From: Candidatus Yanofskybacteria bacterium RIFCSPHIGHO2_01_FULL_41_21
Lineage (GTDB): Bacteria; Patescibacteriota; Minisyncoccia; 2-02-FULL-40-12; GWA2-44-9
Assembly: GCA_001794025.1 (NCBI GenBank)
Contig: MGJA01000008.1
Span: 358 to 64,357 of the forward strand
Length of the DNA stretch: 64,000 bases
Direction: 5' to 3'
Shown: positions 1,043 through 18,242 of the stretch, piece after piece
How positions within the stretch are numbered: the stretch's first letter is position 1
Layout of the letters: every line of letters starts with the position of its first letter
The notes under the pieces: generated by a model
Told to the model about the DNA's origin: nothing
The model's database searches: none
Seen by the model: only the letters and a program-made list of their open reading frames with translations
Position numbers and translations under genes: made by a program

Positions 1043-1267
1043 ATGAAAACCGAAATCCATCCACAATATTATCCCAAGACCAAAGTGACCTGCGCCTGCG
1101 GCCATACTTGGCATGTCGGTTCAACTGCTGAAGATATCAGAATTAACGTTTGTTCCAAATGTCATCCGTTCTATACAGGTAACGAAAAAATCATTGATAC
1201 TCGTGGTCGTGTTGAAAAATATCAAAAGCGCGTTGCCGCCGCCAAGAAACCAAAAGCTAAGAAGTAG
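1043..1267 (+). CDS. rpmE: 50S ribosomal protein L31 (Zn-ribbon type)
   Basis: MKTEIHPQYY...CACGHTW...CSKCHPFYTG classic L31 sequence. Confidence 0.9.
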   Translation: MKTEIHPQYYPKTKVTCACGHTWHVGSTAEDIRINVCSKCHPFYTGNEKIIDTRGRVEKYQKRVAAAKKPKAKK

Positions 1268-1276
1268 ATTTCTCTC

Positions 1277-2080: not shown

Positions 2081-2104
2081 AGCTTTGCCTCGCCTCCACC
2101 CTCT

Positions 2105-2142
2105 GTGATTATTTGGTGTGCATATGCACACCAAATAATCAC
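2105..2142. repeat. perfect 38-bp palindrome with gtgcatatgcac core (family F)
   Basis: gtgattatttggtgtgcatatgcacaccaaataatcac; related copies at 17656 and 18243. Confidence 0.7.
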
Positions 2143-2201
2143 ACTCTTTACTTTGGAGTGCTCTTATTATATAATCGGCGGAGGTTAAGGAGGTCTTTGA
2201 A

Positions 2202-2783
2202 ATGATGAGAACGAAGAAGGAAAGTGAGAGGAAGCGGAAGAAAGTGCTTCGGACGGGTTCCAAAAGGTTCATCGCATGTCTGGGTAAAGGTGAAACCGTG
2301 CGTGTTACCTGGAAAGATTGGATTACATACTGGGCAAGTGTTCAGGATCCAAATCGAGAGAGATATCGGGAAGCTCTTGAAACAAACCACCAATATATCA
2401 AACGTCTCCAAGAACAACTGGCCGTAAGTCAGGGACTGTTTGATGAGACGGTCCGTGTGCTTGGATCTGAAAAAGATCGGCGAACATCGTTGGAAACAAA
2501 ATATTCTGAATCTATTGAGAAAAACGAAGGAATCAAAGAATTGTTGACAGCGCTCTTGGTTCCGTGGGCCGATTCACTCGGACGACGCGAACTCACAACT
2601 TTCGTTGAAGCCCAGACGGAAGCTCTCGAAGTTCAAGTATCTCCTGAAGTCATCAATGAGGTCATCATTGACGTCTTTACTTCAATAACCTGTTTTTTGC
2701 GTCTAAACGAATCAAATGATAATTCCTGCATCGCGCTTGAGAAAGCACATGAAGTTTTGAAGGATAGGGCCACGAGGTTGTAG
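2202..2783 (+). CDS. hypothetical protein (basic N-terminus)
   Basis: 193-aa ORF with GGAGG-like RBS upstream; no recognisable family. Confidence 0.5.
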   Translation: MMRTKKESERKRKKVLRTGSKRFIACLGKGETVRVTWKDWITYWASVQDPNRERYREALETNHQYIKRLQEQLAVSQGLFDETVRVLGSEKDRRTSLETKYSESIEKNEGIKELLTALLVPWADSLGRRELTTFVEAQTEALEVQVSPEVINEVIIDVFTSITCFLRLNESNDNSCIALEKAHEVLKDRATRL

Positions 2784-2808
2784 GATAAAAAGATACGCTC
2801 CGACAATC

Positions 2809-2920
2809 GGCCCCGCACTTCGTGCGGGCCCCACGATGTCGGGGCCTGCCCAGTAGTGAACCTCCGAAAGTAATTTGTGCCGTAAGGCAATCGGAGGCTC
2901 TACTACTGGGCCTTTTGTTT
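2809..2920 (+). terminator. compound structured element: three consecutive hairpins ending in a T-tract (terminator or small RNA 3' end)
   Basis: cccgcac-ttc-gtgcggg; gcccc..ggggc; long stem gcccagtagtg...ctactactgggc then ttttgtttt. Confidence 0.35.
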
Positions 2921-2970
2921 TGGACCTTGATTTGTCTAAATAAATCGTGTATTATGGTAAAGCTTATGGA

Positions 2971-3080
2971 TCCCGTTAGAAGTAACCCTAACGGGTCTAT
3001 AAATATGATAAATTTAACCAGCTATTAGTGCAGTATCCACTGTAACAGAACTGTGGATGGCTGTTACTACTTCTAACGGG
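2971..3080 (+). repeat. family A ~110-nt structured cassette (TIR cccgttagaa/ttctaacggg) abutting rpsB start codon
   Basis: homologous copies at 34572..34681, 50566..50675, 53939..54049, all ending ...ttctaacgggATG. Confidence 0.7.
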
Positions 3081-3779
3081 ATGGAAACTATACAAGACAA
3101 CCTTATTTCGTATGAAGATATGCTCAAGGCGGGTACGCATTTTGGTCGCAAAAAGACCGTTTATAACCCCCAAATGGCGCCTTATGTTTATATCGTTAGA
3201 GACGGTATTTGCATCATTGATCTTCTAAAGACCCAAACCGAATTAACTAATACAATCAAATTTTTAAAAAAGACAGCCGAGAACGGTGGCTTGATGCTTT
3301 TTGTTGGTCTAACCAAACAATCATCGGGTGGTATTAAAGAACTCGCCCAGGCCCTAAATATGCCCTATGTTATTGATCGCTGGATTGGTGGAACCTTGAC
3401 GAACTTTAAGATTATAAATGATCGTGTTAAGAAACTTGAAGAAATGGAAAAAGGTCTGAAAACGGGCGCTTACGATAAATACACTAAAAAAGAACGATTG
3501 ATGTTGACCCGTGAGATGAACAAGATGTCTACTCATTTTGAAGGACTGAAGAAGCTTACTAGAATGCCTGATGTTGTCTTTGTGTCATCTTTAAAAGAAA
3601 GTGCCCTTCCGCTTCATGAATCAAAGAAGATGGGTGTGGCCTGTGTTGCTATCACAAACACCGACTCAAACCCCAAGTCCGTGGACTATATCGTTCCGGC
3701 TAATGATCGTTCCAAGAAATCAGTTGACCTCATTTTGGATGCTCTCAAGCGAGAATTGACAGCTGTAACATCACAGTAA
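3081..3779 (+). CDS. rpsB: 30S ribosomal protein S2
   Basis: GTHFGRKKTVYNP...; start moved from 3057 to 3081 because first 24 nt belong to repeat family A. Confidence 0.9.
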   Translation: METIQDNLISYEDMLKAGTHFGRKKTVYNPQMAPYVYIVRDGICIIDLLKTQTELTNTIKFLKKTAENGGLMLFVGLTKQSSGGIKELAQALNMPYVIDRWIGGTLTNFKIINDRVKKLEEMEKGLKTGAYDKYTKKERLMLTREMNKMSTHFEGLKKLTRMPDVVFVSSLKESALPLHESKKMGVACVAITNTDSNPKSVDYIVPANDRSKKSVDLILDALKRELTAVTSQ

Positions 3780-3848
3780 TTAGGACCTAGTAATTAGTTC
3801 TTAGTTCAATTTGTTCTAAGTTCTAAAAACTAAGTTCTAAGTCCTAAC
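3780..3848. repeat. AT-rich inverted repeat built from ttagga/ctaag units
   Basis: ttaggacctag...ctaagtcctaa inverted ends between rpsB and tsf. Confidence 0.5.
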
Positions 3849-3849
3849 T

Positions 3850-4299
3850 ATGGCAGATATTGATCAGATTAAATCGTTGCGGGATGAGACCGGATTATCG
3901 GTTGCGGATATTAAGAAGGCCTTGATTGAAGCGGGTGGCGACATTGATAAGACCCGTGAACTATTAATATCTCGAGGTGGGGATATTGCTGCGAAAAAAG
4001 CCGGGCGTGACCTTAAGGCCGGTATCGTGGATTCCTATATTCACAATAATAAACTTTCCGGTTGTATACTGGAGTTGCTGTGTGAAACCGATTTTGTAAG
4101 TCGAGGCGAAATTTTTCAGACATTAGCCCATGACCTCACTCTTCATATTACGGCCATGAATCCTCAGAATGTAGAAGAATTAATGGAACAGGCGTTTATT
4201 AAAAATCCGGAACAGACCATTCGCGATCTCATTACATCGCATATTGCCAAGTTGGGTGAGAACATCCAAATTGGACGTTTCCAGGTATTTCAGATATGA
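3850..4299 (+). CDS. tsf: elongation factor Ts (short form)
   Basis: MADIDQIKSLRDETGLSVADIKKALIEAGGDIDK UBA-like N-terminus of EF-Ts; 149 aa. Confidence 0.85.
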   Translation: MADIDQIKSLRDETGLSVADIKKALIEAGGDIDKTRELLISRGGDIAAKKAGRDLKAGIVDSYIHNNKLSGCILELLCETDFVSRGEIFQTLAHDLTLHITAMNPQNVEELMEQAFIKNPEQTIRDLITSHIAKLGENIQIGRFQVFQI

Positions 4300-4315
4300 A
4301 ATTTTATTTAAAATT

Positions 4316-4366
4316 TCACCCGCCTCTGGCGGGTTGCCATAGAGCTATCCGCCAGAGGCGGATGCT
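4316..4366. terminator. pair of opposed GC hairpins cccgcctctggcggg / ccgccagaggcgg (family G)
   Basis: same hairpin recurs at 5283, 5586, 5770 flanking tRNAs. Confidence 0.5.
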
Positions 4367-4386
4367 GATAATTATGGCCACTCGCT

Positions 4387-5022
4387 TTGCTCGTGGGTAA
4401 TTATCGCATGTTTATTATCACTCCTCTGATTTTTATTGGTATCTCAGTCATTGGTATGGCTGTTATTGTAAGTCGGAAGATGTCGTATCTTAGAAAATTA
4501 TCTCCGGAGTCCAATGAAGTCAGTGATAATATTTTTAAAGATTTTTTCCCCGAATTAATTGCGTGGTTTAATCAAATTCCATGGCATCAGTATCGCCAAG
4601 TAACCCTCCAAGAAATTGAAAAAGGACTTCGCTGGATGCGGTTAGTGTTTTTAAAAATAGACCACGCATCAGCTCGTTTGATTCAGAAAGTACGCCATTC
4701 TCATCTATCTACTCAACTAGAGCACACCGCCTCAATTCAGTCAGACATCTCTACTGAAGTAATTGTGCCAGAACACATGGAGATAGTGGCTGAACCGACA
4801 CCCGAGGATTTGAAGGCCCAAGAACAACAGCTCATTATTGAGATTGCTCAAGATCCAAAGAATGTAAATTTGTATGAAAAACTCGGAGACCTTTATTTAA
4901 AGATGGATATTATTCCAGACGCAAAAGAGGCCTATGAAGCCGGGCTGGGATTTAATCCCGATAACCAAACTCTTGCCCGCAAGTATTCAGTGTTATTAAA
5001 AAAGACAGATACAATCAAATAG
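4387..5022 (+). CDS. hypothetical membrane-anchored protein with C-terminal TPR-like repeat
   Basis: N-terminal TM helix; C-terminal LGDLYLKMDIIPDAKEAYEAG TPR-like. Confidence 0.5.
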   Translation: MLVGNYRMFIITPLIFIGISVIGMAVIVSRKMSYLRKLSPESNEVSDNIFKDFFPELIAWFNQIPWHQYRQVTLQEIEKGLRWMRLVFLKIDHASARLIQKVRHSHLSTQLEHTASIQSDISTEVIVPEHMEIVAEPTPEDLKAQEQQLIIEIAQDPKNVNLYEKLGDLYLKMDIIPDAKEAYEAGLGFNPDNQTLARKYSVLLKKTDTIK

Positions 5023-5027
5023 TCACT

Positions 5028-5102
5028 GCCGCCTTAGCTCAACGGTAGAGCAGCACTTTTGTAAAGTGAAGGTTCCCAGTTCAAATCTGGGAGGCGGCTC
5101 CA
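5028..5102 (+). tRNA. tRNA-Thr (anticodon TGT), CCA encoded
   Basis: cloverleaf folded by hand: acceptor gccgcct/aggcggc, D-arm gctc..gagc, anticodon loop tttgtaa, T-arm cccag/ctggg. Confidence 0.7.
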
Positions 5103-5152
5103 ATAGTTGCCGAAATGGCGATTTTTGTTTACAATATGATGAATAGAGTAAG

Positions 5153-5235
5153 GGGGTGTGGTGGAGTGGTCAATCACAACAGACTGTAAATCTGTCGGCC
5201 GTGTGCCTTCGTAGGTTCGAATCCTACCGCCCCCA
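5153..5235 (+). tRNA. tRNA-Tyr (anticodon GTA), type II long variable arm
   Basis: acceptor gggggtg/cgccccc, anticodon loop ctgtaaa, variable arm cggccgtgtgccttcg, T-loop ttcgaat. Confidence 0.8.
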
Positions 5236-5308
5236 CACGAGTTTTGCCCAAGAGCGAAAAGCGATTGGATACAAAACTCAGTGCCCGCCTCCGGCGGGCC
5301 GAAAAACA

Positions 5309-5581
5309 ATGAGTTACTTTGTTTATGTTTTAAGAAGTAAAAAAGACGGTAAATTGTATACTGGATATTCAGAAGATCCAGAACGTCGTCTCAAGGAACA
5401 TAATGCAGGCAAGACAGTATCTCTATTGAAGCGTAGACCATTGATTATTGTGTATCAAGAGATATACAATAAAGAAATTCAAGCCAAAAGAAGGGAAAGA
5501 TTTTTGAAAACAGGGCAAGGAAGAAAATTTTTGCAGACCGCGTTGAAACTTGCGGTTGTTCAAGATTTTCGCAAGAATTAG
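5309..5581 (+). CDS. GIY-YIG nuclease family protein (YhbQ/UPF0213-like)
   Basis: YFVYVLRSKKDGKLYTGYSEDPERRLKEHN GIY-YIG motif; upstream part of the 5156 ORF overlaps tRNA-Tyr and is discarded. Confidence 0.8.
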   Translation: MSYFVYVLRSKKDGKLYTGYSEDPERRLKEHNAGKTVSLLKRRPLIIVYQEIYNKEIQAKRRERFLKTGQGRKFLQTALKLAVVQDFRKN

Positions 5582-5651
5582 TAGGTGGCCCGCCAGAGGC
5601 GGGCATAGAAATTGTGCCTACTCATAAAAATAATTCGTAGACAATTTCTAT

Positions 5652-5723
5652 GCCGTTGTAGCTCAGTGGTAGAGCACCTCCATGGTAAGGAGGGGGTCGT
5701 CAGTTCAATCCTGACCAACGGCT
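5652..5723 (+). tRNA. tRNA-Thr (anticodon GGT)
   Basis: acceptor gccgttg/caacggc, D-arm gctcagtggtagagc, anticodon stem cctcc/ggagg loop atggtaa. Confidence 0.8.
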
Positions 5724-5873
5724 CTAAGTTTTTGTCCAAGAGCTATAGCGATTGGTTACAAAAAGTTACCCGCCTCTGGCGGGAAGTAGTAGATAATTAA
5801 CCAGTAATTACGTCATATTTAGTAGTATTTAAATAGTTAAGTACTAAACATATTACGTGGTTCAATAGAAATT

Positions 5874-6276: not shown

Positions 6277-6498
6277 TCATTCTGACTCTATCTTTATTTT
6301 AACTGGCGAGTAACCATCCTTACTATGTTCTATTTGTTTAAGGATAGCTTCTACTTCTTCTATCTTATACATCCGATAGTTATTCACAGGGTTGCGATAA
6401 GCCCGTAGCTTTCCTTTTTGATCCCAGTTGCGAACCGTCAAGGGGCTAACACCCAACAATCTAGCGACATCATTCACAGTCAAGAATTTTTTAGGCAT
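6277..6498 (-). CDS. excisionase/MerR-superfamily helix-turn-helix DNA-binding protein
   Basis: LTVNDVARLLGVSPLTVRNWDQKGKL HTH pattern; 73 aa. Confidence 0.7.
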   Translation of the reverse strand: MPKKFLTVNDVARLLGVSPLTVRNWDQKGKLRAYRNPVNNYRMYKIEEVEAILKQIEHSKDGYSPVKIKIESE

Positions 6499-6695: not shown

Positions 6696-6735
6696 TTTTT
6701 AGGAATTAGGAATTAGGAATTAGGAATTAGGACCC
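6696..6735. repeat. tandem heptamer (ttaggaa)x5
   Basis: taggaattaggaattaggaattaggaattagga; a related tandem sits inside the giant CDS at 7340..7375. Confidence 0.8.
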
Positions 6736-7031: not shown

Positions 7032-10000
7032 ATGTCCGATTATCAGCCCAAAAAATTACCTTCTCAATGGATCTCAATTCAAGAGGCGACGCGTCACGCA
7101 CCGTACTCGCAAGAGTATTTAAGTTTATTGGCGCGACGGGGAAAAATATTTGCTAAAAAAATTGGGCGGAATTGGTATACAACTCATGAAGCGTTAGAAC
7201 GTTATATTTCAGAGCAGACCCTTCTTTCACCGATAGCCAAACAATTCAGTCCTACCGTGGAACTTGCTTCGTCTTCCTCAAATTTAGTGGAAGAATTTAA
7301 ACGTCTTAATCCTCAAGTATTTGGGCAAGAAAAAAAGCAGGAATTAGGAATTAGGAATCAGGAATTAGGAAATACAAAACAAGGGATTGAATCGGTGCCA
7401 TCAGTACTTCCTAATGTTGCGCCAGCTCCGGTTACAATACCAACACCTACTATCCCTGTAATTCCGCAAAATAATTCAGAGAATAAAGTTCTTGAAAAAC
7501 TGGATCGATTATCTGATTCGTTGGAAACGTTTACTTCAAGTGTGACCGCATCAATTCCGGCTATAACCCAAGCGAATCAATCAGCGCCATTAAACCCCGA
7601 GGTTGAAGAATTTGTTCAGGAACGAATAAATTCTTCCATTCATAGATTCCGACATTTTGATCGTTTTGCAAAATCAACAACCCGATCTCCTGTCCGTTTA
7701 ATGGCCGTTATGATTACGGCTGTAGTGTTAATCTTTGTTCTTATCGGCGGGTTCAGTTTTGGAAAAGTAGATGCCGTTGCTCAAAAAATTAAAAAGGCCT
7801 TCAACGATGCCACCACGATTGATGGCCATTTTGCCGGGACGCATGCCAATGAGGTCTTAATTCTGGATAAGGCCGGCAATATTTCAATTTACGGCCATAT
7901 TGAAACCGAAGGTCAGTTTCGGAGCCATGCGCCGGAGGGCGTGGCGCCGATTGTGGTGGATTCGTTGACTAAAGTTGAAAATCTTAATGCTGATTACATT
8001 GATAATCTTAGTTCCCAGGACTTTACCCTCGCCTTCGTTACTAAAAATGGGAACCTAACCTATGAAGATGTCCATCTGATGGGTGATGTTGAAGTGGGAA
8101 AACTTCTTAAAGTCGGCGGGGATGCGATTATTGGGAAGACCCTAACCGTGTCCGGCGCCACCAAGCTAATGGACTCGTTAACTGTTTATGGCAAACTCGG
8201 AGTTCTTTCGGATGCGGTTTTCGGAAAAGATGTCACTCTCACCAATGGTGATCTCGTCATAAGCAAAGGCACCATTAAGATTTCTAATATGACTTTGATT
8301 AAAAATCTTAATGCCGAATATTTGGACGGTGTTAAAAAAGGAGACATCAATCTCAACTTTGTCACTTCAAACGGAAATACGACTTCAAACTCAATTACAG
8401 TTGGGGGTCTCACCTCAACCGGAACCATAACTTCTTACGGTCCGGGATTTTTTAATTCAAGTATCTGGAGTCCTTTCGGTTCTTTTGGTGATTTAGGTGT
8501 CGGAAAGAGCGCCAGTTTTGGCGACTCAAAAAATCCGAGTAATTCAAAATTTGAGGTCTATTCCAGTAAGTTTTCTCTTGATGCGAACGGTAATGCTCGA
8601 TTGGCCGGCACGACCACTACTAATAATTTATTAGTCAGTGGCAGTGTTTTATCGGGACTTATTCCTTCGGGATCATTTGATTTGGGCTCACTAGCACAAC
8701 CGTGGGTAAATCTTTATGCAATTGACGGAAATTTCTCCGGTGATATTACGGTCTCCGGCAGTTTAAATTTTGCCGGCACGACATCAAGTTCTTTTGTTAT
8801 CAATACCGATAATACCGCTTCTGATTCTGAAGATGCTTACTTAGCGTTTAGTCGCGGTTCAATAACTCCGGATGCGAAACTGACATGGAATTCCACTTTT
8901 AAACAATTTGAATTTAATGAACCAGTTAATATTGCCAGTAGTTCTTTCACGGTTGAAGGGAATACTTTTTTGAATAACGCTTCAGTTTCTAATAATTTTG
9001 AAGTTGTTGGCACCGCCTCTATCTCCGGTACCACCACCCTCGCCGGTCAAACCTACACCTGGCCTTCTTCCCAAACAACTAACGGTTTCCTTAAAACAAA
9101 CGGTACCGGCACTTTATCCTGGTCAACCGCTTTCTCCGGTACCATCGCTTCCTTATCTCAAAACTTTGACCCTGCCACCGACAATCAATACGACCTTGGC
9201 GACCCAAGCTACCGCTGGCGAACCGGTTACTTTGGGACCAGTATCATCTCTCCCTTTGCTTCTTTCACCAATGCCAGTGTTTCCAATAACTTTGAGATAG
9301 GTAACATTGCCAGTATCGGAGGAAATGCCACCATCGGCGGTACCCTTGGTGTAACCGGAAACACCACCCTCACAGGTACCCTAACTGGTAATTCAATTGG
9401 TTCCAACTCTTTTCAAGGTAGTTTAGATGTTGCCCTTGGTCTCCACGCTGTTGGTAACGTTACCACCCTTGCCCAATTCCTTTCTTCCGGAACAGGCAGT
9501 AACTCTTTTGCGGGCAGTTTAGATATCACCAAAGGTCTTCGGGCTGCCCAAATCACCGGTACCGGCCTTACCCTAAACGGAAATACCAATATCTCCGGTA
9601 CTCTCAATGTTATTGGTCAATCAAACTTCTCTAACGCTTCCGCTTCATCCGGATTTGAATCAACCTACCTGAAAACGGATACAATCTCTAATTCCACGGG
9701 CACCCTAACCATCAACGCTTTTACCCTTGGCGGATTAGTCACCGGCAACAATCAATCCATTACAGGATTAAATCAACTCACTTCATCTATCGCCAGTATC
9801 TCTACTAACTTTGAAGTCGGTGGTTATGCTTCAATCGGAGGAAACACCACCCTTGCGGGTCAAACATACACCTGGCCTTCCTCTCAAACAACCAACGGTT
9901 TTCTAAAAACAAACGGTTCTGGCACTTTATCCTGGTCAACCGCTTTTGCCGGTACCATAGCTTCCTTATCCCAAAACTTTGACCCCGCCACCGACAATCA

Positions 10001-13000
10001 ATACGACCTTGGCGACCCAAGCTACCGCTGGCGAACCGGTTATTTCGGGACCTCGCTAGGCATCAACAACGGCGGAACATTAAACACCGCCTTTGAAGTC
10101 GGAGGAACTGCTTCTATATCTAATACCTTAACTCTTGGCGGTATTATTACTTCCACAAATACCGGTTCCAACTCTTTCGCTGGAAGCATTGAACTTACTA
10201 AGGGCTTCCGATTCGGTAATCTTACTCAAACCGGAACAGGGATTAATTACTTTGCCGGCAACGTCGGTATTGGGACGAATTCACCGACCTCTCTCTTTAC
10301 TGTCCAAGGTCGGGGAGAATTCCAAGGCACGGCAAGCGCTTCCTATTTCCTAACCGGCAATACGATTCAAGTCGGTGGTTTCTCATCGGCCAGTTATAAC
10401 CGATTCGGGACCGGTACCACCAACCATGCTAATTATATTTCCACTTCTAATGATGTTCTCGTTTCCGGGGATTTGGAAATTTTGGGGACAGCTTCATTTG
10501 AAGGTAATGTCGTTATCGGCGCTACGAGTACAACCACTTTAGCCGTCGGTTCTACAGTCAAAAGCGACCTTATTCCGTTCACCAATGCCTACAATCTTGG
10601 TTCCACTACCAATCATTGGGGGACGCTATATGTTGATACCGCCAATATTACGACTCTAGAAGCATCAACAGCATCTATTTCCGGCACTACCGCTCGGGAT
10701 TTCCTAATTAATTCTGACAATGCTTCGGCGGATGCTGAAGATATGTCCGTCACATTTAAACGAGGTCTGCCTACGGTTAATGCCGCGCTTGAGTGGGATT
10801 CAACCAACAAGCGTTTTAATTTGAATTTTCCGATTTTCGTTCAGACCGTAGATAATCCGGAACCAAGCTATAATTTTACCCAGCTTGTCCTTAAAGGTGC
10901 CGCGGACCAGAGTTCAAATGATTATTTCCAAATTAAAGATTCTTCCGATGTTTCTAAGTTTCGGATAAGCGACAATGGCGCTTCATTTTCGGTTCCGTTT
11001 GAGCTTTCAAATACCGCTTCCATTTCCAACACTCTTACTCTCGGCGGTATCATTACTTCCACAAATACCGGTTCCAACAGTTTCTCGGGCGGTCTGGAAG
11101 TAACCAAAGGCATCCATGCCACGGGTTCAATCACTTCCGGCGGTGATTTAAGAATCAACGGCAACGCTAATCTTAACGGGGTCTTTGTTTTTGGTGACAA
11201 CGGCGATGTCGGGTCAATTAATACTAATGATTGGGACATTGCCATCGACGGCGCCTTAACCGGAATATCTTTTAACGCTAATGGGACCGGTAACTCAATA
11301 TCCAATATTGATAATGGTGACTTAACCGCCGATACTTTGGACTTCACCGCTATTTCCGACAGTCCCACCCTTGACGCTGACCTCTATATTCAAAGAGCCG
11401 GTTTCAAGATTGGTATCGGTAAGACCCCTTCTACCGTCTTTGAAGTCCAAGGCACGGCTTCCGCTTCCTACGGTCTCTTTGGTACCCTCCAAATCGGTGC
11501 CTTCTCATCAACAAGTTACAACAGATTCGGCACCACCACCACCGGTCACTCACTCTCCGCAAGTAATGACCTCTTAATATCCGGAGACCTGGAAGTAGAT
11601 GGTTCTGCATACTTTGATGGAAGCACAATCTTCGGTGCCGGTGCCTCCATTTCCGGTAACTTTGACCCCGCCACCGATAATACATATGACTTAGGGGATG
11701 CAAGTTATCGCTGGCAGACAGGTTATTTCGGAACATCATTGGGTATCAACAATGGAGGTACCCTTGACACCGCCTTTGAAGTCGGTGGCACGGCCTCTAT
11801 CTCTAACACCTTAACCCTCGGCGGTATTATTACTTCCACAAATACCGGTTCTAATTCTTTCTCGGGAAGTATCAATTTAGATAAAGGCCTCCATACTACC
11901 GGTAACGTTACCACCTTAGCCCAATTCCTTTCTTCCGGTACAGGCAGTAACAGTTTTGCTGGCAGTTTAAACATCTCCAAATCATTAACGGCGACCAATA
12001 GTGTTACAGCTGGCAGTTTTGTTACCGCCGGTAATCTCACTGTGGGTGGCAATGAGGTCTTAACGGGGACTTTCACTGGCAACTCTACCGGTTCCAACTC
12101 TTTCGCCGGTTCACTGGATATCATCAAAGGTCTTCGTTCCGCCAACTTCACTCAAGTCGGTTCCGCCCCAAACTACTTTAATGGCAACGTCGGCATCGGG
12201 ACGACGGCGCCAAATATCACGGCTTATGCCGGTCGTGTCTTGACCGTTGGTTCAGGCACGAGTGCGGAACCCGCCATCGAGATTTACGGAGGCAGAACTG
12301 GCTCGGATGGTATAGCAGCGGACATGGCTTTTTTAAACAGTTATGCTACTGGTGCCGATAAACGTATTGCATTGATTCGAGCAAACCGTATTACAGACGA
12401 CAATTCTGGGGGTCTTCAATTTTATTCAAGAAATGCGGGAACATTGGTAGAAGCGTTGCGAATAGATAAAACTGGCAACGTCGGCATCGGGACGACGGGG
12501 CCGGGGAATAAGCTCTCATTTGGCGCGAATAACTCGGCTCAGATTATCTCGTTGTATGAAAGTGGAAATACTAAGGTCACTATTGGTACGAATGACGGAT
12601 TTACATTTGCTGTTCCAAACACAAGTAACAATAATTTTAAATTTGGTACACTTTCCACAGCAGATGGAACAACTTTTTCGGAAAAAGTGAGAATTGATAA
12701 TAGCGGCAACGTCGGCATCGGGACGACGGGGCCTAGTGAATTATTGGAAGTGTCAAAAAGTACGGCAAGTGGAAATACTTTTATTCGTATTACAAATACT
12801 GACACCAGTGCTGATGGTGGTGAAGGGGCCGCTTTGGCATTGTATGAGGCAGGAACTCTTCGAACTCAATTCACTTCGAATTTTCAGGATCAGAAGATGT
12901 ATTTATATCATCGTGGGGACAACAGGGTCACGATAGATAATGTCGGCAACGTCGGCATCGGGACGACGGTACCAGGGCAAGCTTTAGAAGTTGGAGGCAC

Positions 13001-13712
13001 GGGCAAGGTAAAAATCGCCGCTTTGACCACCCAGGGCTATGTCTGCGTGGGTGGCAACCCCGGAGCCGGAGTCCTTTCCGATGGGGGAGCATCGTGTTCC
13101 ACTTCCGATGCCAGATTAAAAATAGACATTACCCCCATCTCGGATTCTCTGAATGTGCTTTCATCCCTGAATCAACTTCACGGAGTTTATTATCGTTGGG
13201 ATTTAAATAATCCAAGAAATGAAGGTATGCCTTCCAGCCGTCAAATCGGTATGATCGCCCAGGATGTGGAACAGGTGTTGCCGGAACTGGTATCTGTCGG
13301 CTCTGACGGCTATCGTTCTTTAGATTACCCCAAATTCACCGGTTTCCTGTTGGAAGCGGTCAAAGAGCTTGATAACAAAACAAACGCTTTGACAGGGCAA
13401 TTTGAGGCATTTACAAGCAAATTAGAGGCCCAATGCGTGACCGGAGATACGAGATTGCGCCGTAGGCGCAAGCGAGCCCGTCCCGATGCCGACGTTGAAG
13501 GCGAATTTGATTTTGATGAAGTTGAAATAAAAGATATTGTTGCAGGCGACGAAATCCAGTCGCTGAATGAGGCCACCGGCCGGGTGGAATTCGCTCGCGT
13601 GAACGCGCTTATGGACATGGGCGTCCAAGAGGTGTATGAATTGGTTACCAAGTCGGGGAGGAAGATTCGGACCACCAAAAATCATCCATATCTGGTAAAA
13701 CTGGGGTCATAA
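7032..13712 (+). CDS. giant tail-fibre-like surface protein: N-terminal HTH, TM helix, GNVGIGTT-type beta-repeats, C-terminal peptidase S74 intramolecular-chaperone domain, then N-terminal half of a split mini-intein
   Basis: HTH (WISIQEATRH...GRNWYT); TM LMAVMITAVVLIFVLIGGF; SDARLK...YYRWD...GMIAQDVEQVLPELV ICA motif; CVTGDT...TKNHPYLV Hint blocks A and B. Confidence 0.85.
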   Translation: MSDYQPKKLPSQWISIQEATRHAPYSQEYLSLLARRGKIFAKKIGRNWYTTHEALERYISEQTLLSPIAKQFSPTVELASSSSNLVEEFKRLNPQVFGQEKKQELGIRNQELGNTKQGIESVPSVLPNVAPAPVTIPTPTIPVIPQNNSENKVLEKLDRLSDSLETFTSSVTASIPAITQANQSAPLNPEVEEFVQERINSSIHRFRHFDRFAKSTTRSPVRLMAVMITAVVLIFVLIGGFSFGKVDAVAQKIKKAFNDATTIDGHFAGTHANEVLILDKAGNISIYGHIETEGQFRSHAPEGVAPIVVDSLTKVENLNADYIDNLSSQDFTLAFVTKNGNLTYEDVHLMGDVEVGKLLKVGGDAIIGKTLTVSGATKLMDSLTVYGKLGVLSDAVFGKDVTLTNGDLVISKGTIKISNMTLIKNLNAEYLDGVKKGDINLNFVTSNGNTTSNSITVGGLTSTGTITSYGPGFFNSSIWSPFGSFGDLGVGKSASFGDSKNPSNSKFEVYSSKFSLDANGNARLAGTTTTNNLLVSGSVLSGLIPSGSFDLGSLAQPWVNLYAIDGNFSGDITVSGSLNFAGTTSSSFVINTDNTASDSEDAYLAFSRGSITPDAKLTWNSTFKQFEFNEPVNIASSSFTVEGNTFLNNASVSNNFEVVGTASISGTTTLAGQTYTWPSSQTTNGFLKTNGTGTLSWSTAFSGTIASLSQNFDPATDNQYDLGDPSYRWRTGYFGTSIISPFASFTNASVSNNFEIGNIASIGGNATIGGTLGVTGNTTLTGTLTGNSIGSNSFQGSLDVALGLHAVGNVTTLAQFLSSGTGSNSFAGSLDITKGLRAAQITGTGLTLNGNTNISGTLNVIGQSNFSNASASSGFESTYLKTDTISNSTGTLTINAFTLGGLVTGNNQSITGLNQLTSSIASISTNFEVGGYASIGGNTTLAGQTYTWPSSQTTNGFLKTNGSGTLSWSTAFAGTIASLSQNFDPATDNQYDLGDPSYRWRTGYFGTSLGINNGGTLNTAFEVGGTASISNTLTLGGIITSTNTGSNSFAGSIELTKGFRFGNLTQTGTGINYFAGNVGIGTNSPTSLFTVQGRGEFQGTASASYFLTGNTIQVGGFSSASYNRFGTGTTNHANYISTSNDVLVSGDLEILGTASFEGNVVIGATSTTTLAVGSTVKSDLIPFTNAYNLGSTTNHWGTLYVDTANITTLEASTASISGTTARDFLINSDNASADAEDMSVTFKRGLPTVNAALEWDSTNKRFNLNFPIFVQTVDNPEPSYNFTQLVLKGAADQSSNDYFQIKDSSDVSKFRISDNGASFSVPFELSNTASISNTLTLGGIITSTNTGSNSFSGGLEVTKGIHATGSITSGGDLRINGNANLNGVFVFGDNGDVGSINTNDWDIAIDGALTGISFNANGTGNSISNIDNGDLTADTLDFTAISDSPTLDADLYIQRAGFKIGIGKTPSTVFEVQGTASASYGLFGTLQIGAFSSTSYNRFGTTTTGHSLSASNDLLISGDLEVDGSAYFDGSTIFGAGASISGNFDPATDNTYDLGDASYRWQTGYFGTSLGINNGGTLDTAFEVGGTASISNTLTLGGIITSTNTGSNSFSGSINLDKGLHTTGNVTTLAQFLSSGTGSNSFAGSLNISKSLTATNSVTAGSFVTAGNLTVGGNEVLTGTFTGNSTGSNSFAGSLDIIKGLRSANFTQVGSAPNYFNGNVGIGTTAPNITAYAGRVLTVGSGTSAEPAIEIYGGRTGSDGIAADMAFLNSYATGADKRIALIRANRITDDNSGGLQFYSRNAGTLVEALRIDKTGNVGIGTTGPGNKLSFGANNSAQIISLYESGNTKVTIGTNDGFTFAVPNTSNNNFKFGTLSTADGTTFSEKVRIDNSGNVGIGTTGPSELLEVSKSTASGNTFIRITNTDTSADGGEGAALALYEAGTLRTQFTSNFQDQKMYLYHRGDNRVTIDNVGNVGIGTTVPGQALEVGGTGKVKIAALTTQGYVCVGGNPGAGVLSDGGASCSTSDARLKIDITPISDSLNVLSSLNQLHGVYYRWDLNNPRNEGMPSSRQIGMIAQDVEQVLPELVSVGSDGYRSLDYPKFTGFLLEAVKELDNKTNALTGQFEAFTSKLEAQCVTGDTRLRRRRKRARPDADVEGEFDFDEVEIKDIVAGDEIQSLNEATGRVEFARVNALMDMGVQEVYELVTKSGRKIRTTKNHPYLVKLGS

Positions 13713-13840
13713 TTTTCAGTTTTCAATTATCAATTTTCAATGAATTTACAATGAATCAATTCATCAAAAAAATACAAAAAATAAGGGGAAGCTATATCAC
13801 GGATAGCGGGGTAAGTGTCGTTTTTTACGAAACTCGTGAG

Positions 13841-14221
13841 ATGGCGACCCTCCAAAGTCGTGATATAGAAAAGGTCTCTGCGACTCAACGAAGAGGCAAT
13901 GTCGGCACTGGGGAGGCAAGTCGTGATATGAAAATCATAGAAAATCAAAAAGCCCCGAACAATTGGGACTCTTTGAAGTGGACCCGAGGGGGTTTGCACC
14001 CCTTTCATCAGGTGCTAACGCTGATATGTTACTTCATACACCACGGGCCCGGATCCACACATTTATTATACAGAAAGATGACCGAAACATCAAAACAAAA
14101 AGAACCCCTTTTGAAAGAGGCCCTTTTTGTAGCACCTGATAATGTCCGCAATGTACGAACTATCAGCGTATACAGTAATTATACTCCTATCCATGAAGGT
14201 GTCAAGTGGATATGTGGATAA
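13841..14221 (+). CDS. hypothetical protein (first gene of intein-inserted module); start uncertain (track start 13751)
   Basis: ORF with RRGNVGTGE segment encoded by the shared GC-rich repeat; overlapping minus-strand ORF makes it uncertain. Confidence 0.35.
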   Translation: MATLQSRDIEKVSATQRRGNVGTGEASRDMKIIENQKAPNNWDSLKWTRGGLHPFHQVLTLICYFIHHGPGSTHLLYRKMTETSKQKEPLLKEALFVAPDNVRNVRTISVYSNYTPIHEGVKWICG

Positions 14222-14237
14222 TCAAAGATAATCAAAC

Positions 14238-15443
14238 ATGAATATATTCAATAAAATTAAGAAAATGATACGTCCCGCTGTCTCTGCTTCTCAACAAAAA
14301 GGCAATGTCGGCAGCGGGGCGGTCAATATTGGCGAAAGCAAAATCGCCGATTTTTGCCCCTACTGCAATTCCAAGGACTTCATGAAGCGAGGAATGCGAA
14401 AAAAGAAATTGGAACTGGTCCAGTTGTATTTGTGCCGAAATTGCAAACGGACATTTACTGCCCAGTTTATCAAAGGCAAGCATTATCCGACCAAGCTGAT
14501 TATTGACGCTATCAGTATTTACAATTTGGGGTATGGGTTGGAAGAGACATGTCGACTTATAAACCAGCGTTATGGCGTTAATCCCGGCGCAGCCACTTTA
14601 AATGGATGGTATGTGGAATATGCGCCCTTGTGCCGATATTCGCGGTTGCGTCAATTCGGGATGAAAATGTTTAAACCGGAAAATGTTGTGGAAGAAGTAA
14701 CTATGGCGCATCGGCAGTTGTACCGATATAGATTTCATCGGGCGAAAATGGAACTGGTCTTGCAGGATTTTAAGCACCACCGCTTTGAATCACTGAAGCA
14801 TTATCTGGAAGCGGTGGCGAGCGAGACACCGCACCAGTATTTTCAGGAAGGCGGGCGGATGTCGGAAGTCAAGACAAAATTTAATAAAGCCCAGATGATT
14901 GTCCGTTCAAAAAAGAATTACGCCAACCGGCTGGCGGAGTTTGTTTTGCAAGCCGTCAAGGATAATAAACAGCGCCACGAGGCCTTGCAAAAATTTATGC
15001 TCGCCAACGATTCGGTGACCGTGGCGACCGAGGTGCCGGTCTATATAAGAAGAGAAGATATCGGTCACATGGAAAATGATTTGGGATTTGAAGTGCTCAA
15101 TGAGGGCGAGGAAATACCAAGGTTGCTGACTGGACATATTGATTTAATCCAGGTGCGCAATGGGCAGGTTCATATACTTGATTTTAAGCCAAATGCAGCT
15201 AAAGAGAAACCAATTGAACAACTAACCTGGTACGCGCTGGCTTTGTCCCGCCTGACCGGTTTGCGATTATATGAATTTAAATGCGCCTGGTTTGACGGCA
15301 AAGATTATTTTGAATTTTATCCCTTGCACGTCGTCAAAAAAATTACCCACCGCTTGAAGAATAAAAAGGTATTTTTGAAGAGTCGCGGAACGTCAATTGA
15401 AATTCCAAATGAGGACTTAGGCAGAAAAGTAAAAGTGGTCTAG
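14238..15443 (+). CDS. Zn-ribbon + HTH (InsA-like) N-terminus fused to PD-(D/E)xK-like nuclease domain
   Basis: CPYCNSK...CRNCKRTF zinc ribbon; C-terminal GHIDLIQVRNGQVHILDFKP resembles D..(D/E)xK nuclease core. Confidence 0.65.
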   Translation: MNIFNKIKKMIRPAVSASQQKGNVGSGAVNIGESKIADFCPYCNSKDFMKRGMRKKKLELVQLYLCRNCKRTFTAQFIKGKHYPTKLIIDAISIYNLGYGLEETCRLINQRYGVNPGAATLNGWYVEYAPLCRYSRLRQFGMKMFKPENVVEEVTMAHRQLYRYRFHRAKMELVLQDFKHHRFESLKHYLEAVASETPHQYFQEGGRMSEVKTKFNKAQMIVRSKKNYANRLAEFVLQAVKDNKQRHEALQKFMLANDSVTVATEVPVYIRREDIGHMENDLGFEVLNEGEEIPRLLTGHIDLIQVRNGQVHILDFKPNAAKEKPIEQLTWYALALSRLTGLRLYEFKCAWFDGKDYFEFYPLHVVKKITHRLKNKKVFLKSRGTSIEIPNEDLGRKVKVV

Positions 15444-15476
15444 ATAAATTTTCAATAAAAATTGTAAATTATTATA

Positions 15477-16049
15477 ATGACCTATACTACATTTAAAAAA
15501 TATGCGCCAAAAAAGCCCGTGCATAAGTTCACGGATTTAGAAGTTTATCAGCAGACACTGGCCTTGTCGGTGATTATTATGAAGGACTTAAAACCTAAAC
15601 TGATAATACTTGAGTACCCGTTTTTGGAGAATTTAACAAATGGCGCGATTTCATTGCCACTATGGATTGCCGAAGCTCATTCAGTAAGGTTCGGAGACCA
15701 TGCCGTCGGCTTGGGTTTATTGGAAAAAGTCATGTCTGGCTGTAATAAAATGGTGGTATACTTAGAGCAAGCCAAAGGAATTTATCGCCCCGCTGCCGAG
15801 GTTGCCTCTTCGTTGAGAAGCAGAGACCTGTCCCAAGTGGGACAAAGTGACGACCAAAGGTCGGCAACAAACAAAATCGGCACCGGGGCCCTCGACCCGG
15901 ACCTGATAGACGATTTAATTAAACGTTATCATGACGTTCGGACCAAAGTTTTTCGTCTAAGCAAATCGTGGCAAAAGTGGTACGATGTCCCGCTGCCGAA
16001 ATTGCCTTCTATTGAAAAGCGGGAACAGCGGGACAAAATAAATATATGA
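15477..16049 (+). CDS. four-helix-bundle protein (23S rRNA intervening-sequence protein / DGR Avd family)
   Basis: KFTDLEVYQQTLAL...LPLWIAEAHSVRFGDHAVGLGLLEKVMSGCNKMVVYLEQAK matches 4HB family pattern; ATGA overlap with next gene. Confidence 0.7.
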   Translation: MTYTTFKKYAPKKPVHKFTDLEVYQQTLALSVIIMKDLKPKLIILEYPFLENLTNGAISLPLWIAEAHSVRFGDHAVGLGLLEKVMSGCNKMVVYLEQAKGIYRPAAEVASSLRSRDLSQVGQSDDQRSATNKIGTGALDPDLIDDLIKRYHDVRTKVFRLSKSWQKWYDVPLPKLPSIEKREQRDKINI

Positions 16050-17638
16050 AAAAGATAAATAATAATAAAATATCGGCATCGGGACGCTCAAAGAGCGGCA
16101 TGAGCAATCTCGGCACCGGGACGTGGACAAAAGTATCGGAATTAAGACCGGGTATGAAAATTGCCGTGCCGAAAAATGAAATCGGCATCGGGACAGACGA
16201 TGTATTGTGGGACGAAATTGTCGCAGTTAATCATATCGGCCGGGAACGGGTCTATGATATTGAAGTGGAAGGCACTCATAATTTTATTGGTAATGATATT
16301 TTCGCTCATAATACTTACATCAATAACGATTTAATAAATATTTCGGCGATTAATCTTGAAGTCGGAGATATTGTTCGGCCCGCCTCGGGTTCCCAAAGGT
16401 TCGTCGTTGCCACTCCGGCTGATGAAAATCAAGTTGCAGGCATTGTTACCGCTACGCCGGCCACTTCAGATAGCGTCTCAACTTCAATCGCTTTTTCGGG
16501 ACAGGCCATAGTAAAGGTCTCGGCGGAAAATGGCGCGATTAAAGTCGGTGATCGGCTGGCCTTAAGCGATAACCAGCCTGGTGTGGCCATAAAAGCCACC
16601 ACGGCCGGCATGACTATCGGTATCGCAATGGAAGACGCAATAGTAGATAGGGTTTTAACTCTTGTTAATGTCGGATATTGGGTGCCGAGTGTGGCGACTG
16701 TTACTGGAACAACTGCCAGTGGTTCGGGAACGGTTACGGTCTCTTCAAGCGGTTCACCGACTGATGTGTTGGCGACATTGGCGAATGCGGTCATGACTCG
16801 TGTTCAGTCAATTTGGGCATCGGGAGATATCATCAAAGAAGGCATAAGCAAAACGTATTTTGCAATTTCCAATTTACAATTATCAATTTCCAATTTTGGA
16901 ACCTCAATCTCTGAAGCAATTAGTAATTGGGGGACCAGAGATATTACTATTGCCAATACGGCGGATGATGCGACCAAGGCATTATTTACGGGCAATTCGG
17001 CGCAAGCGTCTGACCAGTCCAAAGTTGATTTAGCCGAGAATAATGAATATCTGACGACTTATGGCGTGGATTCAACAAGAGGGGAGATTCAACTTTCCGG
17101 TTCGTCGCAAATCGTCGCTGGCGAAGCCAGGGTTTATTTTGACTATTCTTTCTCCTCAATTATTTCCGACAAAGCGCCGATTAGAGTAATCGTAACCCCA
17201 ACCTCAATGATGCAAGGGCAGCTTTACACTGATTCCAAGTCACAATACGGTTTCGTAATTAAAGAATTGAATGCCCAAGATAACGGAACATTTGACTGGC
17301 TGGTGATTGCAAGACGAAAAGGTTTTGATACAGACATAATTTCCACCCCGACCCCGGATTCGACAAGCTCACCACAAGCAACACCGGCCACTGCTCCATC
17401 AACTGACCCTACCCCCACCCCGACTCCTGACGTAGCACCAACATCGGATGTTACTCCTACCCCAACCCCAACCCCTGATGCAGCACCAGTTACTGATGCA
17501 ACACCTGCGCCTACCCCAGAACCAACCCCAGATATAACTCCAGTTCCTGATACTACTCCGACACCTGTCCCAGACGCTACACCAGAACCGACACCATCAT
17601 CAATAACACCCGAAAGTACACCTACCCCAACCCCATAA
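16046..17638 (+). CDS. protein starting with C-terminal half of split mini-intein (16046..16312) followed by C-extein with beta-rich domain and Pro/Thr-rich tail
   Basis: WTKVSELRPGMKIAV...VYDIEVEGTHNFIGNDIFAHN then +1 Thr; PT-rich low-complexity C-terminus. Confidence 0.8.
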   Translation: MKKINNNKISASGRSKSGMSNLGTGTWTKVSELRPGMKIAVPKNEIGIGTDDVLWDEIVAVNHIGRERVYDIEVEGTHNFIGNDIFAHNTYINNDLINISAINLEVGDIVRPASGSQRFVVATPADENQVAGIVTATPATSDSVSTSIAFSGQAIVKVSAENGAIKVGDRLALSDNQPGVAIKATTAGMTIGIAMEDAIVDRVLTLVNVGYWVPSVATVTGTTASGSGTVTVSSSGSPTDVLATLANAVMTRVQSIWASGDIIKEGISKTYFAISNLQLSISNFGTSISEAISNWGTRDITIANTADDATKALFTGNSAQASDQSKVDLAENNEYLTTYGVDSTRGEIQLSGSSQIVAGEARVYFDYSFSSIISDKAPIRVIVTPTSMMQGQLYTDSKSQYGFVIKELNAQDNGTFDWLVIARRKGFDTDIISTPTPDSTSSPQATPATAPSTDPTPTPTPDVAPTSDVTPTPTPTPDAAPVTDATPAPTPEPTPDITPVPDTTPTPVPDATPEPTPSSITPESTPTPTP

Positions 17639-17708: not shown

Positions 17709-18242
17709 ATGAAAAAACGCCAAGTTTTAGTAGCTATAATATCCGCGTTGGGAAAAACTTTTGAATCTATAGACGAAATGACTCCGAATCTTTTTAGAAG
17801 AGAATCAATGCATTACAAAGATCTTCGTCTTGCCGGTTATGATCCCAAAAAAATTTATAGATCTTTTAGAAATCTACATAGTCGCGGACTAGTTCATTTA
17901 GAAAAAGATAAATTTAAAATTACTAAAAAGGGTCAAAAATGGCTGACGAATTCTTATCAAAGGTATTTTCATTTCAATAAAATCGCCAAAGATAATAAAT
18001 GGCGAATTATTATTTTTGACATTCCTCAGGAACACAATAAAAGTCGCAACAAGTTGAGGAACAAATTAAAGTTATGGGGGTTTTATATGTTACAGCGTAG
18101 TGTTTTTGTTTGTCCCTATGAGTGTGAAGATGAATTGGCTAAATTATGCGAAAAATTAAACATTTCCGATTATATCGATATAATATTAGCTGATTCACCA
18201 GGATTTAGAACAAAAGAAATAAAGAAATACTTTGAATTATAA
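17709..18242 (+). CDS. PaaX-like putative regulator: N-terminal wHTH-like region + C-terminal Cas2-fold domain
   Basis: WRIIIFDIPQEHNKSRNKLRNKLKLWGFYMLQRSVFVC matches Cas2/PaaX_C-type motif (FDI...R..L...G....QxSVFxC). Confidence 0.6.
   Translation: MKKRQVLVAIISALGKTFESIDEMTPNLFRRESMHYKDLRLAGYDPKKIYRSFRNLHSRGLVHLEKDKFKITKKGQKWLTNSYQRYFHFNKIAKDNKWRIIIFDIPQEHNKSRNKLRNKLKLWGFYMLQRSVFVCPYECEDELAKLCEKLNISDYIDIILADSPGFRTKEIKKYFEL

Follow-up and report, generated by a model that had tools for sequence, protein, structure and literature searches.

A predicted split intein in the gene of a tail-fibre-like surface protein of Candidatus Yanofskybacteria

The stretch of DNA analysed here, called the window, comprises 64,000 nucleotides of Candidatus Yanofskybacteria bacterium RIFCSPHIGHO2_01_FULL_41_21 (contig MGJA01000008.1, positions 358 to 64,357 of the forward strand). 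It carries a plus-strand open reading frame (ORF) of 2226 amino acids, ORF A, at 7032..13712. With a probability of about 80%, ORF A is the first piece of a ~2575-residue, membrane-anchored, tail-fibre-like surface protein whose gene is split by an intein. The end of ORF A and the start of a second frame, ORF B, are predicted to be the two halves of a class-1 split intein with splicing activity, IntN and IntC. The original prediction had described ORF A as a complete protein ending in a peptidase S74 chaperone domain. The frame itself stands: it is uninterrupted in the ORF scan of the window, starts with ATG and is identical to a deposited protein, OGM97760.1 (NCBI 'hypothetical protein A2735_01215', Candidatus Yanofskybacteria bacterium RIFCSPHIGHO2_01_FULL; UniRef 'Peptidase S74 domain-containing protein'), which is seen on several assemblies. 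Its completeness does not stand, as residues 2135-2226 are instead the N-half of an intein.

The split intein and its exteins

IntN (CVTGDTRLRRRRKR...TKNHPYLVKLGS and then the stop codon) begins directly after the ...FTSKLEAQ of a helical extension. Its block A cysteine, C2135, is conserved in eight aligned loci and in 14 contiguous relatives, and the T and H of block B (TKNHPY, aa 2214-2219) are conserved in the alignment. The C-half is recognized in ORF B at aa 44-89 by Pfam Intein_splicing (model positions 114-155, 42.8 bits) and by TIGR01443 (34.3 bits against a cut-off of 15.6). Its boundary with the C-extein reads ...VYDIEVEGTHNFIGNDIFAHN^TYINNDL, that is, ...IFAHN^T, the caret marking a splice junction. 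Cys1, the T and H of block B, the terminal HN and the +1 Thr are kept in loci that share the insertion site of the window; three loci with a second site have an insertion ahead of the terminal HN. When fused in silico, IntN and IntC align end to end with the DnaB mini-inteins 4o1r (E=5.7e-24) and 1mi8 (4e-17), and the sole gap falls at the IntN/IntC junction, which is the endonuclease-insertion point. The fused halves match 33 solved intein-related chains at E<=0.01. The polybasic run RRRRKR directly after block A (13452-13472, aa 2141-2147) is unusual for inteins; it occurs in every aligned IntN (the window and seven loci) and in 4 of the 14 contiguous relatives.

On comparison with single-chain relatives the two exteins belong to one protein. 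The S74 domain, a coil, the domains of the C-extein and a Pro/Thr-rich tail lie in one chain in the intein-less proteins P0009, P0012, P0014, P0018-22 and P0033. In the intein-less P0289 (5746 aa) one chain runs from a helix-turn-helix (HTH) domain and a transmembrane (TM) segment through 41 GNVGIGT-type repeats, S74 (SDQRLK) and the coil to the C-extein domain and the Pro/Thr tail. AlphaFold2 (AF2) models two beta domains of the C-extein with confidence. The fold matches of the model are the receptor-binding domain of a tailspike (7eea), an R-pyocin fibre and parts of the phi29 appendage and head fibre, and in BFVD a preneck appendage and many phage tail-fibre proteins; a sequence search of the PDB with the C-extein profile gave no match. 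A sequence scan finds neither a TM segment nor a signal peptide in ORF B, and splicing would therefore be the sole evident route by which the C-extein reaches the outside. The predicted junction of the spliced product is LEAQ-TYINNDLINISAINLEVGDIVR, with LEAQTYINNDLINISAINLEVGDIVR(PASGSQR) as the predicted tryptic junction peptide.

The fracture recurs in relatives. The order of fibre with IntN, nuclease, four-helix-bundle gene and IntC with C-extein is found in loci L001, L002/L006 and L003-5, with C-exteins 42-58% identical to that of the window. Where the contig reaches far enough, L001, L002 and L003-5 have common flanks, with a MerR-like gene upstream and a TPR protein and YceG downstream. 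The gene is also split at L016, L023, L024, L027 and L029-31, and genes for ribosomal L10/L12, YceG and MraZ/RsmH lie near the fibre loci of relatives. By the Nei-Gojobori method dN/dS is 0.10 for the C-extein (against an 86%-identical relative), 0.19 for IntC, 0.09 for IntN, 0.06-0.09 for the nuclease and 0.06 for the four-helix-bundle gene. Values of 0.06-0.19 across the parts argue against a decaying pseudogene, and all parts are under purifying selection.

The intein belongs to a family that is rich in such elements. An exhaustive HMMER search with ORF B returned 2959 representatives at E<=0.001; IntC stands at the start of 21 of the best 150, and contiguous inteins of the type seen in the window, one to five per protein, are present in 12. 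Five are present in P0301 (5631 aa), three each in P0308 and P0321, and two each in P0338, P0365, P0343 and P0323. P0283 and P0396 are also among the giant fibre proteins of the candidate phyla radiation (CPR) with contiguous inteins of this type. Of 14 contiguous inteins drawn from eight of these proteins, 11 have Gln at -1 and 13 have Thr-Tyr at +1/+2. Their usual site is GNVGIGTT.P..KLHVEGQ^...HN^TY(I/L). The site in the window, SKLEAQ^...^TYINNDL, resembles the family consensus GNVGIGTT.P..KLHVEGQ^TY, and a related split intein with the same cassette occupies the canonical site in L016, L023, L024 and L029. The insert domains of the contiguous inteins are 114-234 aa long, mostly unconserved and without similarity to the nuclease or the four-helix-bundle protein. 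A word-indexed search with the fused intein yielded half-length (split) relatives alone, the contiguous ones coming from the exhaustive search. A NYN/LabA-like nuclease domain (PF01936, precomputed Pfam) occurs in intein 3 of P0308 and in a free ORF within the L002 fracture (5424-5741). By sequence inspection alone it is also assigned to intein 1 of P0365 and to cassette-adjacent upstream ORFs in L018 and L032. Such domains may be another type of intein-associated endonuclease. Literature searches that paired inteins with CPR lineages or with these fibre proteins found nothing relevant.

The anchored fibre and the insertion between the intein halves

The N-terminal parts of ORF A agree with the original prediction of an excisionase-type HTH followed by a single TM helix. 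Against its cut-off of 27, Pfam HTH_17 gives 19.1 bits for the full-length protein (aa 13-62) and, when the domain is scored by itself, 25.9 bits (E=1.2e-5). The L003 orthologue reaches 27.2 bits, and 43 of 50 homologous N-termini match, the best at 1.8e-8. In an alignment-based AF2 model of the domain (pLDDT 84, core >90) the elements follow each other as beta-alpha-alpha-beta-beta-alpha. TraN, the RdfS excisionase and mycobacteriophage Pukovnik Xis match this fold best (probability 0.97-1.0, root-mean-square deviation 1.6-2.5 Å); Foldseek E-values for this 72-residue model are all >=0.05, and the matches were ordered by probability and deviation. The profile of the domain found no match in a sequence search of the PDB. 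Beyond the fibre family its closest sequence relatives are the C-terminal HTH domains of ~310-aa Fic proteins (55-70% identity over ~50 residues). The HTH subfamily of the fibre, with the motif PYSQEYLSLLARxGK, includes the domains of many such Fic proteins from Chloroflexota, Omnitrophota and others (proteins P0201-P0240). A linker of ~150 aa joins the HTH to the only TM-like segment in the hydropathy scan, and because a basic stretch precedes this segment an N-in, C-out topology is predicted.

A DNA-binding-type domain on a fibre had been called unusual, which is so in general but not here. The same succession of HTH, linker (100-250 aa) and TM segment is found in 74 homologues, and a predicted cytoplasmic DNA-binding-type domain is the rule in this CPR fibre family rather than an oddity of one gene. 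In the fibre protein of L029 (2138-5848) an integrase SAM-like domain takes the position of the HTH (Phage_int_SAM_5, 1.5e-9). An integrase SAM-like (core-binding) domain also replaces HTH_17 ahead of the TM helix in the L024 fibre protein (767-5851), and P0396 has such an N-terminus before its TM helix by sequence inspection alone. The likeness that had been noted between the HTH and the product of the adjacent xis-like gene (6277..6498) extends to a common broad HTH_17/MerR superfamily, but not to pairwise similarity: BLASTP of the fibre HTH against this ORF gave no alignment at E<=100. In the literature searched no description was found of a family that combines a cytoplasmic DNA-binding domain, a TM helix and a giant fibre.

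Outside the membrane the protein would continue as a fibre of the kind originally described. Gly (13.4%), Thr (12.9%), Ser (11.9%) and Asn (9.0%) make up 47% of aa 246-2024, and GNVGIGT motifs start at aa 1076, 1718, 1815, 1892 and 1972. The region matches PHROG tail-spike and tail-fibre profiles, the Pfam scan gives an End_tail_spike match of 27.3 bits, and the coding DNA has internal duplications of 114-260 nt. Pfam places the S74 domain well above its cut-off of 22 bits (54 bits, E=2.1e-14). Ser2025 and Lys2030 of 'SDARLK' form a dyad five residues apart that is invariant in 10 aligned relatives, and the domain probably cleaves itself at Ser2025. PDB matches of this region are 6f45 (7.4e-6), 8jov and, weakly, MYRF 7dc3 (E=0.034). 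In this family S74 is not C-terminal: a helical extension or coil, the intein and the C-extein come after it, and relatives have 300-450 aa beyond it. From the domain order HTH, TM, fibre and S74 it follows that S74 cleavage cannot release the HTH.

The 2.3 kb between the intein-half ORFs (13713..16045) contain a nuclease gene and a four-helix-bundle gene (Table 1). The nuclease is assigned by Pfam PDDEXK_1, a Cas4-like motif and an IS1-type Zn ribbon, and its D302, D315-x-K317 and Q328xxxY332 are invariant in four orthologues. Zn-ribbon proteins are the sole matches of its profile among PDB sequences, and no relative was found in IMG/VR. It is a candidate homing endonuclease. The nuclease is present in 27 CPR genomes (GTDB species representatives), in almost all of which the four-helix-bundle gene follows; this gene is absent in L013, L015 and L019, the first two of which are cut by the contig end. 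Split-intein halves flank the pair in about half of the nuclease loci, and most of the others have it within, or directly behind, the Pro/Thr-rich tail of a gene for a large surface protein. The pair, which is found both with intein flanks and without them, behaves like a mobile cassette of two genes. PF05635 (23S_rRNA_IVP) matches 13 of 24 aligned members of the four-helix-bundle family (best 8.9e-10) and not the member in the window; its profile gave only four chance-level matches (E>=0.27) in a PDB sequence search.

Upstream of the nuclease gene lies an antisense module with a tRNA-like gene. With 89.6% identity to L001 (1663-1892), the DNA of 13940-14169 exceeds the coding flanks. The tRNA-like element was missed by the whole-window Rfam run at gathering scores and found by ARAGORN and a local Infernal search; it is the only Rfam match above gathering score in 13700-14260. 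Removal of the 2.3-kb insert at the RNA level, as a group I or II intron, was rejected, as no intron family is found in the window at Rfam gathering scores. Unlike the window, L029 has a different tRNA-like element (6343-6416, minus strand) that splits the nuclease ORF. In L036 (P0338) a tmRNA-type tRNA-like domain (4219-4289, minus strand; 36.4 bits, E=1e-11) lies in frame within the insert of a contiguous intein. The antisense elements of the window, L029 and L036 all lie at or near the endonuclease site of inteins and are mutually unrelated in sequence. The ORF at 13751..14221 was considered as a protein gene and ruled out by a dN/dS of 0.67 against its L001 counterpart (with low dS), by the lack of a family match and by an N-terminus that is a remnant of a nuclease 5′ end (55% identical to aa 1-40 of the L002 nuclease, whose N-terminus is intact). 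It is probably not a gene, and consists of an ancestral nuclease 5′ end and read-through of the antisense module.

The DNA that encodes GNVGIGT is itself repeated. The core TCGGCANCGGG occurs 12 times against 0.05 expected, all within 4 kb and none elsewhere in the 64 kb, at 12190, 12481, 12712, 12952, 13482, 14308, 15789, 15877, 15989, 16073, 16110 and 16182; as a 19-mer the motif is CAACGTCGGCATCGGGACG. Eight copies lie outside the fibre, some in each orientation and in different frames; they are spread over IntN, the nuclease gene (5′ end), the four-helix-bundle gene and the leader of IntC. Where homologues can be aligned, the copies fall in lineage-specific in-frame insertions, as do those at 15789 and 15877 in the four-helix-bundle gene, and motif-bearing insertions are also present in the L001 and L002 nucleases. 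By its distribution the motif looks like a DNA-level element or target site. Longer versions of 43-48 nt occupy 13872-13916 and 14280-14327 and, inverted, 15780-15829.

Table 1. Coordinates of the fibre locus in the window, with assignments predicted from sequence
Feature	Position	Strand	Description
MerR/HTH_17-type protein, 73 aa	6277..6498	-	Small protein, divergent to fibre gene; Pfam MerR 2e-10, HTH_17 6.7e-10
ORF A, 2226 aa	7032..13712	+	N-extein aa 1-2134 and IntN aa 2135-2226
Winged-helix HTH, HTH_17/excisionase type	7068..7226	+	aa 13-65; predicted cytoplasmic
Single TM segment	7698..7754	+	aa 223-241, hydropathy scan; preceded by basic stretch RFRHFDRFAKSTTRSPVR
Extracellular fibre (predicted)	7767..13103	+	aa 246-2024; G/T/S/N-rich beta repeats, five GNVGIGT
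DNA core TCGGCANCGGG, 12 copies	12190..16192	both	Fuller motif ~CAAYGTCGGCAKCGGGACG; four copies encode GNVGIGT in the fibre
Peptidase_S74 and helical extension	13104..13433	+	S74 aa 2025-2087; extension ends at Q2134, the intein -1 residue
IntN, 92 aa	13434..13709	+	Cys1 in block A CVTGDT, polybasic RRRRKR, block B TKNHPY; stop codon next
ORF 'W156', 156 codons	13751..14221	+	First 39 codons resemble nuclease 5′ end; rest reads through antisense module
Antisense small-RNA module (putative)	13945..14205	-	Two promoter-like sites, two hairpin/T-runs, tRNA-like gene
Sigma-70-like promoter	14205..14178	-	Perfect TTGACA-16-TATAAT; then hairpin and T-run 14130..14095, second promoter-like site
tRNA-like gene	14050..13979	-	ARAGORN Leu-UAG; RF00005 38.6 bits against gathering score 29; then hairpin and T-run 13976..13945
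Free-standing nuclease, 401 aa	14238..15443	+	IS1/IS1595-type Zn ribbon aa 40-75 and Cas4/RecB-like PD-(D/E)XK domain
Four-helix-bundle protein, 190 aa	15477..16049	+	Divergent 23S_rRNA_IVP member; stop overlaps ORF B start (ATGA)
ORF B, 530 aa	16046..17638	+	Leader, IntC aa 25-89, C-extein aa 90-530
IntC, 65 aa	16118..16312	+	ORF B aa 25-89; ends ...VYDIEVEGTHNFIGNDIFAHN, then +1 Thr
C-extein, 441 aa	16313..17635	+	Beta domain (C-extein aa 10-123), low-confidence helical linker, beta-sandwich (250-340), 98-aa Pro/Thr-rich tail

Mechanism, alternatives and known systems

In the proposed mechanism IntN and IntC would associate in the cytoplasm and trans-splice, joining Gln2134 to Thr90 in a protein of ~2575 aa. 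The ligated chain would then be exported and anchored by the TM helix. Its ~1780-aa shaft would trimerise with the help of S74, which probably cuts itself at Ser2025, and the HTH would remain in the cytoplasm, tethered by the TM helix. The locus probably arose when an intein that colonises fibres was invaded at its canonical endonuclease-insertion point by a selfish cassette of two genes, nuclease and four-helix bundle. Inteins of this kind usually sit after GNVGIGTT.P..KLHVEGQ^..^TY, and that of the window sits at the look-alike SKLEAQ^TY. The antisense tRNA-like module probably invaded the cassette later.

Several points weigh against this account. The TIGR01445 match to ORF A (aa 2135-2221, 24.5 bits) sits exactly at the cut-off. 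The match to Pfam Intein_splicing (aa 2163-2222, model positions 9-71, 26.9) is below the gathering score, as expected because only half a domain is present. The nuclease lacks intein flanks in about half of its loci, and its role in homing is an inference. Splicing, S74 cleavage, export and DNA binding are all read from sequence. How a Sec-exported chain of 2134 aa awaits and carries a separately made piece of 441 aa is unexplained. A cut by S74 at Ser2025 would sever the spliced tip from the shaft; contiguous relatives have the same domain order.

Other explanations can be set against the spliced fibre. It is very improbable that the 2226-aa frame is a complete fibre, with S74 as a C-terminal module cut at SDARLK and unrelated ORFs downstream. 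The S74 domain with its Ser-Lys dyad is present and in phages this domain is normally the last, but the 92 residues past its extension are the N-half of an intein whose C-half heads the ORF at 16046..17638, and the domain of ORF B is fused straight after S74 in single-chain relatives. The nested selfish insertions (nuclease cassette, tRNA-like module and short motif insertions) and the decayed remnant at 13751..14221 would suit a dead or dying gene, destroyed by a mobile cassette that landed in its intein and left with decaying halves and no splicing. This is unlikely: both intein halves and all catalytic residues are intact, and the fracture is kept in lineages with C-exteins 42-86% identical, where the intein halves have a dN/dS of 0.09-0.19 and the C-extein one of 0.10. 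Furthermore, 21 independent clusters at 50% identity start with IntC among the best 150 representatives.

The Hint halves might also act like bacterial intein-like (BIL) domains, with cleavage or non-covalent docking of the tip module on the shaft and no ligation. Hint domains of the BIL kind in secreted bacterial proteins reportedly often cleave rather than splice, and an exported host protein is unusual for true inteins. Such behaviour is quite unlikely here, given the conservation of the full class-1 set of splicing residues including the terminal Asn and the +1 Thr, closest solved relatives that are true DnaB inteins, and contiguous copies that lie in frame in the fibres of relatives, where splicing alone restores the repeat. 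A prophage tail-fibre gene with phage homing endonucleases has next to no chance of being the answer. It would account for the PHROG tail-fibre matches and the fold matches to phage fibre proteins, and the loci of Dassa et al. were judged viral (PMC2677866). It is ruled out by chromosomal synteny across species, by the N-terminal HTH and TM anchor and by the absence of a relative of the nuclease in IMG/VR. Transfer RNA genes surround the locus in the window and ribosomal-protein, YceG and MraZ/RsmH genes lie near those of relatives; profile scans found no other phage structural genes beside the fibre gene.

Within the split-fibre account a wider function is conceivable but doubtful. The giant CPR fibres would be contact-sensing, membrane-tethered DNA-binding proteins, with HTH_17 or an integrase SAM-like domain on the cytoplasmic side and the fibre on the other, and inteins would control post-translationally whether the receptor-binding tip is displayed. 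The cassette of nuclease and Avd-like four-helix bundle, the scattered copies of the 19-nt motif and the antisense tRNA-like elements would form a system that homes to, and reshuffles, GNVGIGTT-coding DNA. If so, the tip module of the window would be made separately and added by trans-splicing before export.

The locus reads as a fractured gene of the type described by Dassa et al. (2009, NAR; PMC2677866), new in its host, a chromosomal exported fibre in CPR. In the fractured genes of that study the hosts are DNA synthesis and repair enzymes, probably viral. Common to both are the order N-extein-IntN, free-standing nuclease gene and IntC-C-extein on one strand (13434-13709, 14238-15443 and 16118-17635, all plus) and a break at the endonuclease-insertion point of the intein. 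In both, the last ORF of the invading element overlaps the start of the downstream half, here through ATGA. In contrast to the phage enzymes of DNA metabolism, the host in the window is an exported structural fibre in a CPR chromosome. The nuclease combines a Zn ribbon with a Cas4/RecB-like PD-(D/E)XK domain and is not GIY-YIG or Vsr-like, the cassette has a second gene, and the spacer is 525 nt long and holds an antisense tRNA-like module, compared with 27-51 nt.

The closest solved sequences are the Npu (4o1r) and Ssp (1mi8) DnaB mini-inteins, which have the residues of blocks A, B, F and G in common with the intein of the window. Unlike them it is naturally split, has Thr at +1, carries the polybasic RRRRKR loop after block A and sits in another host protein. 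The S74 region resembles the chaperones of phage tail fibres and endosialidases (6f45, 8jov) in its S-D-x-x-x-K dyad and in its place after a shaft of GNVGIGTT-type beta-repeats, but it is not terminal, with ~440 aa of fibre-tip-like domains following after splicing or in contiguous relatives. MYRF (7dc3), a membrane-tethered transcription factor, likewise brings DNA binding, S74-type auto-processing and a TM helix together in a single chain. In MYRF the order is DNA-binding domain, S74 and TM, so that cleavage frees the DNA-binding domain, whereas the window has HTH (13-65), TM (223-241) and S74 (2025-2087). The HTH shares fold and element order with the excisionase/HTH_17 winged helices of Pukovnik Xis (4j2n), RdfS (8dgl) and TraN (4p0z); unlike excisionases it belongs to a TM-anchored protein with a giant extracellular fibre, and its nearest sequence relatives are the C-terminal HTH domains of Fic proteins. 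With the membrane-bound one-component regulators of the ToxR/CadC type the likeness is one of architecture alone (a DNA-binding-type domain at the cytoplasmic N-terminus, one TM segment and an extracytoplasmic part), as the fold is of the OmpR type there and of the excisionase type here, where the outer part is a fibre of ~2300 aa.

To our knowledge inteins are found almost only in proteins of DNA and nucleotide metabolism and in ATPases. An exported, repetitive structural protein of an ultrasmall, episymbiotic-type groundwater bacterium (CPR/Patescibacteria) would be an unusual host, with a natural split intein in the window and up to five contiguous inteins per protein in relatives. It raises the question of how the cell coordinates cytoplasmic trans-splicing with the secretion of so long a fibre (>2000 residues), and it points to a family of inteins that insert behind a structural motif which is itself repeated (GNVGIGTT...KLHVEGQ^TY). 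Protein engineering has since taken up split inteins of earlier fractured genes as tools, and a new natural split intein with Thr at +1 is a possible addition. The pairing of a Cas4-like nuclease with a four-helix-bundle protein would be a new selfish cassette, widespread in CPR genomes.

Neighbouring genes and heptamer repeats

The MerR-like gene divergent to the fibre gene may encode its regulator. In L003 and L035, too, the fibre gene has this MerR-like gene upstream, and the product in the window is ~75% identical to its L003 counterpart, judged by eye. It also matches the PADLOC model 'mad1' (4.7e-11). Just 3′ of the C-extein gene a plus-strand ORF of 177 aa (17709-18242) encodes a PaaX-like winged helix together with a solo Cas2-like domain (TIGR01573, 4.6e-10); the scanned ORFs adjacent to it yielded no CRISPR-associated family. 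L001 has a PaaX_M ORF in the matching position.

Two families of heptamer repeats are present. Tandem AGGAATT is found in 4.9 copies at 6699-6732, in the intergenic region upstream of the fibre gene, and in 4.7 copies at 7339-7371 inside the fibre ORF, where it encodes QELGIRNQELG of the cytoplasmic linker. A second heptamer-periodic family, TTCAATT/ATCAATT, has 12 matches in the window against 0.07 expected. It is located right after the stop of the fibre ORF (13711-13741), in frame in the C-extein (16875-16893, 'LQLSISNF'), in a YceG-like ORF (21677-21702) and as inverted pairs (40414-40487 and 40959-41039) around the ORF at 40500-40949.

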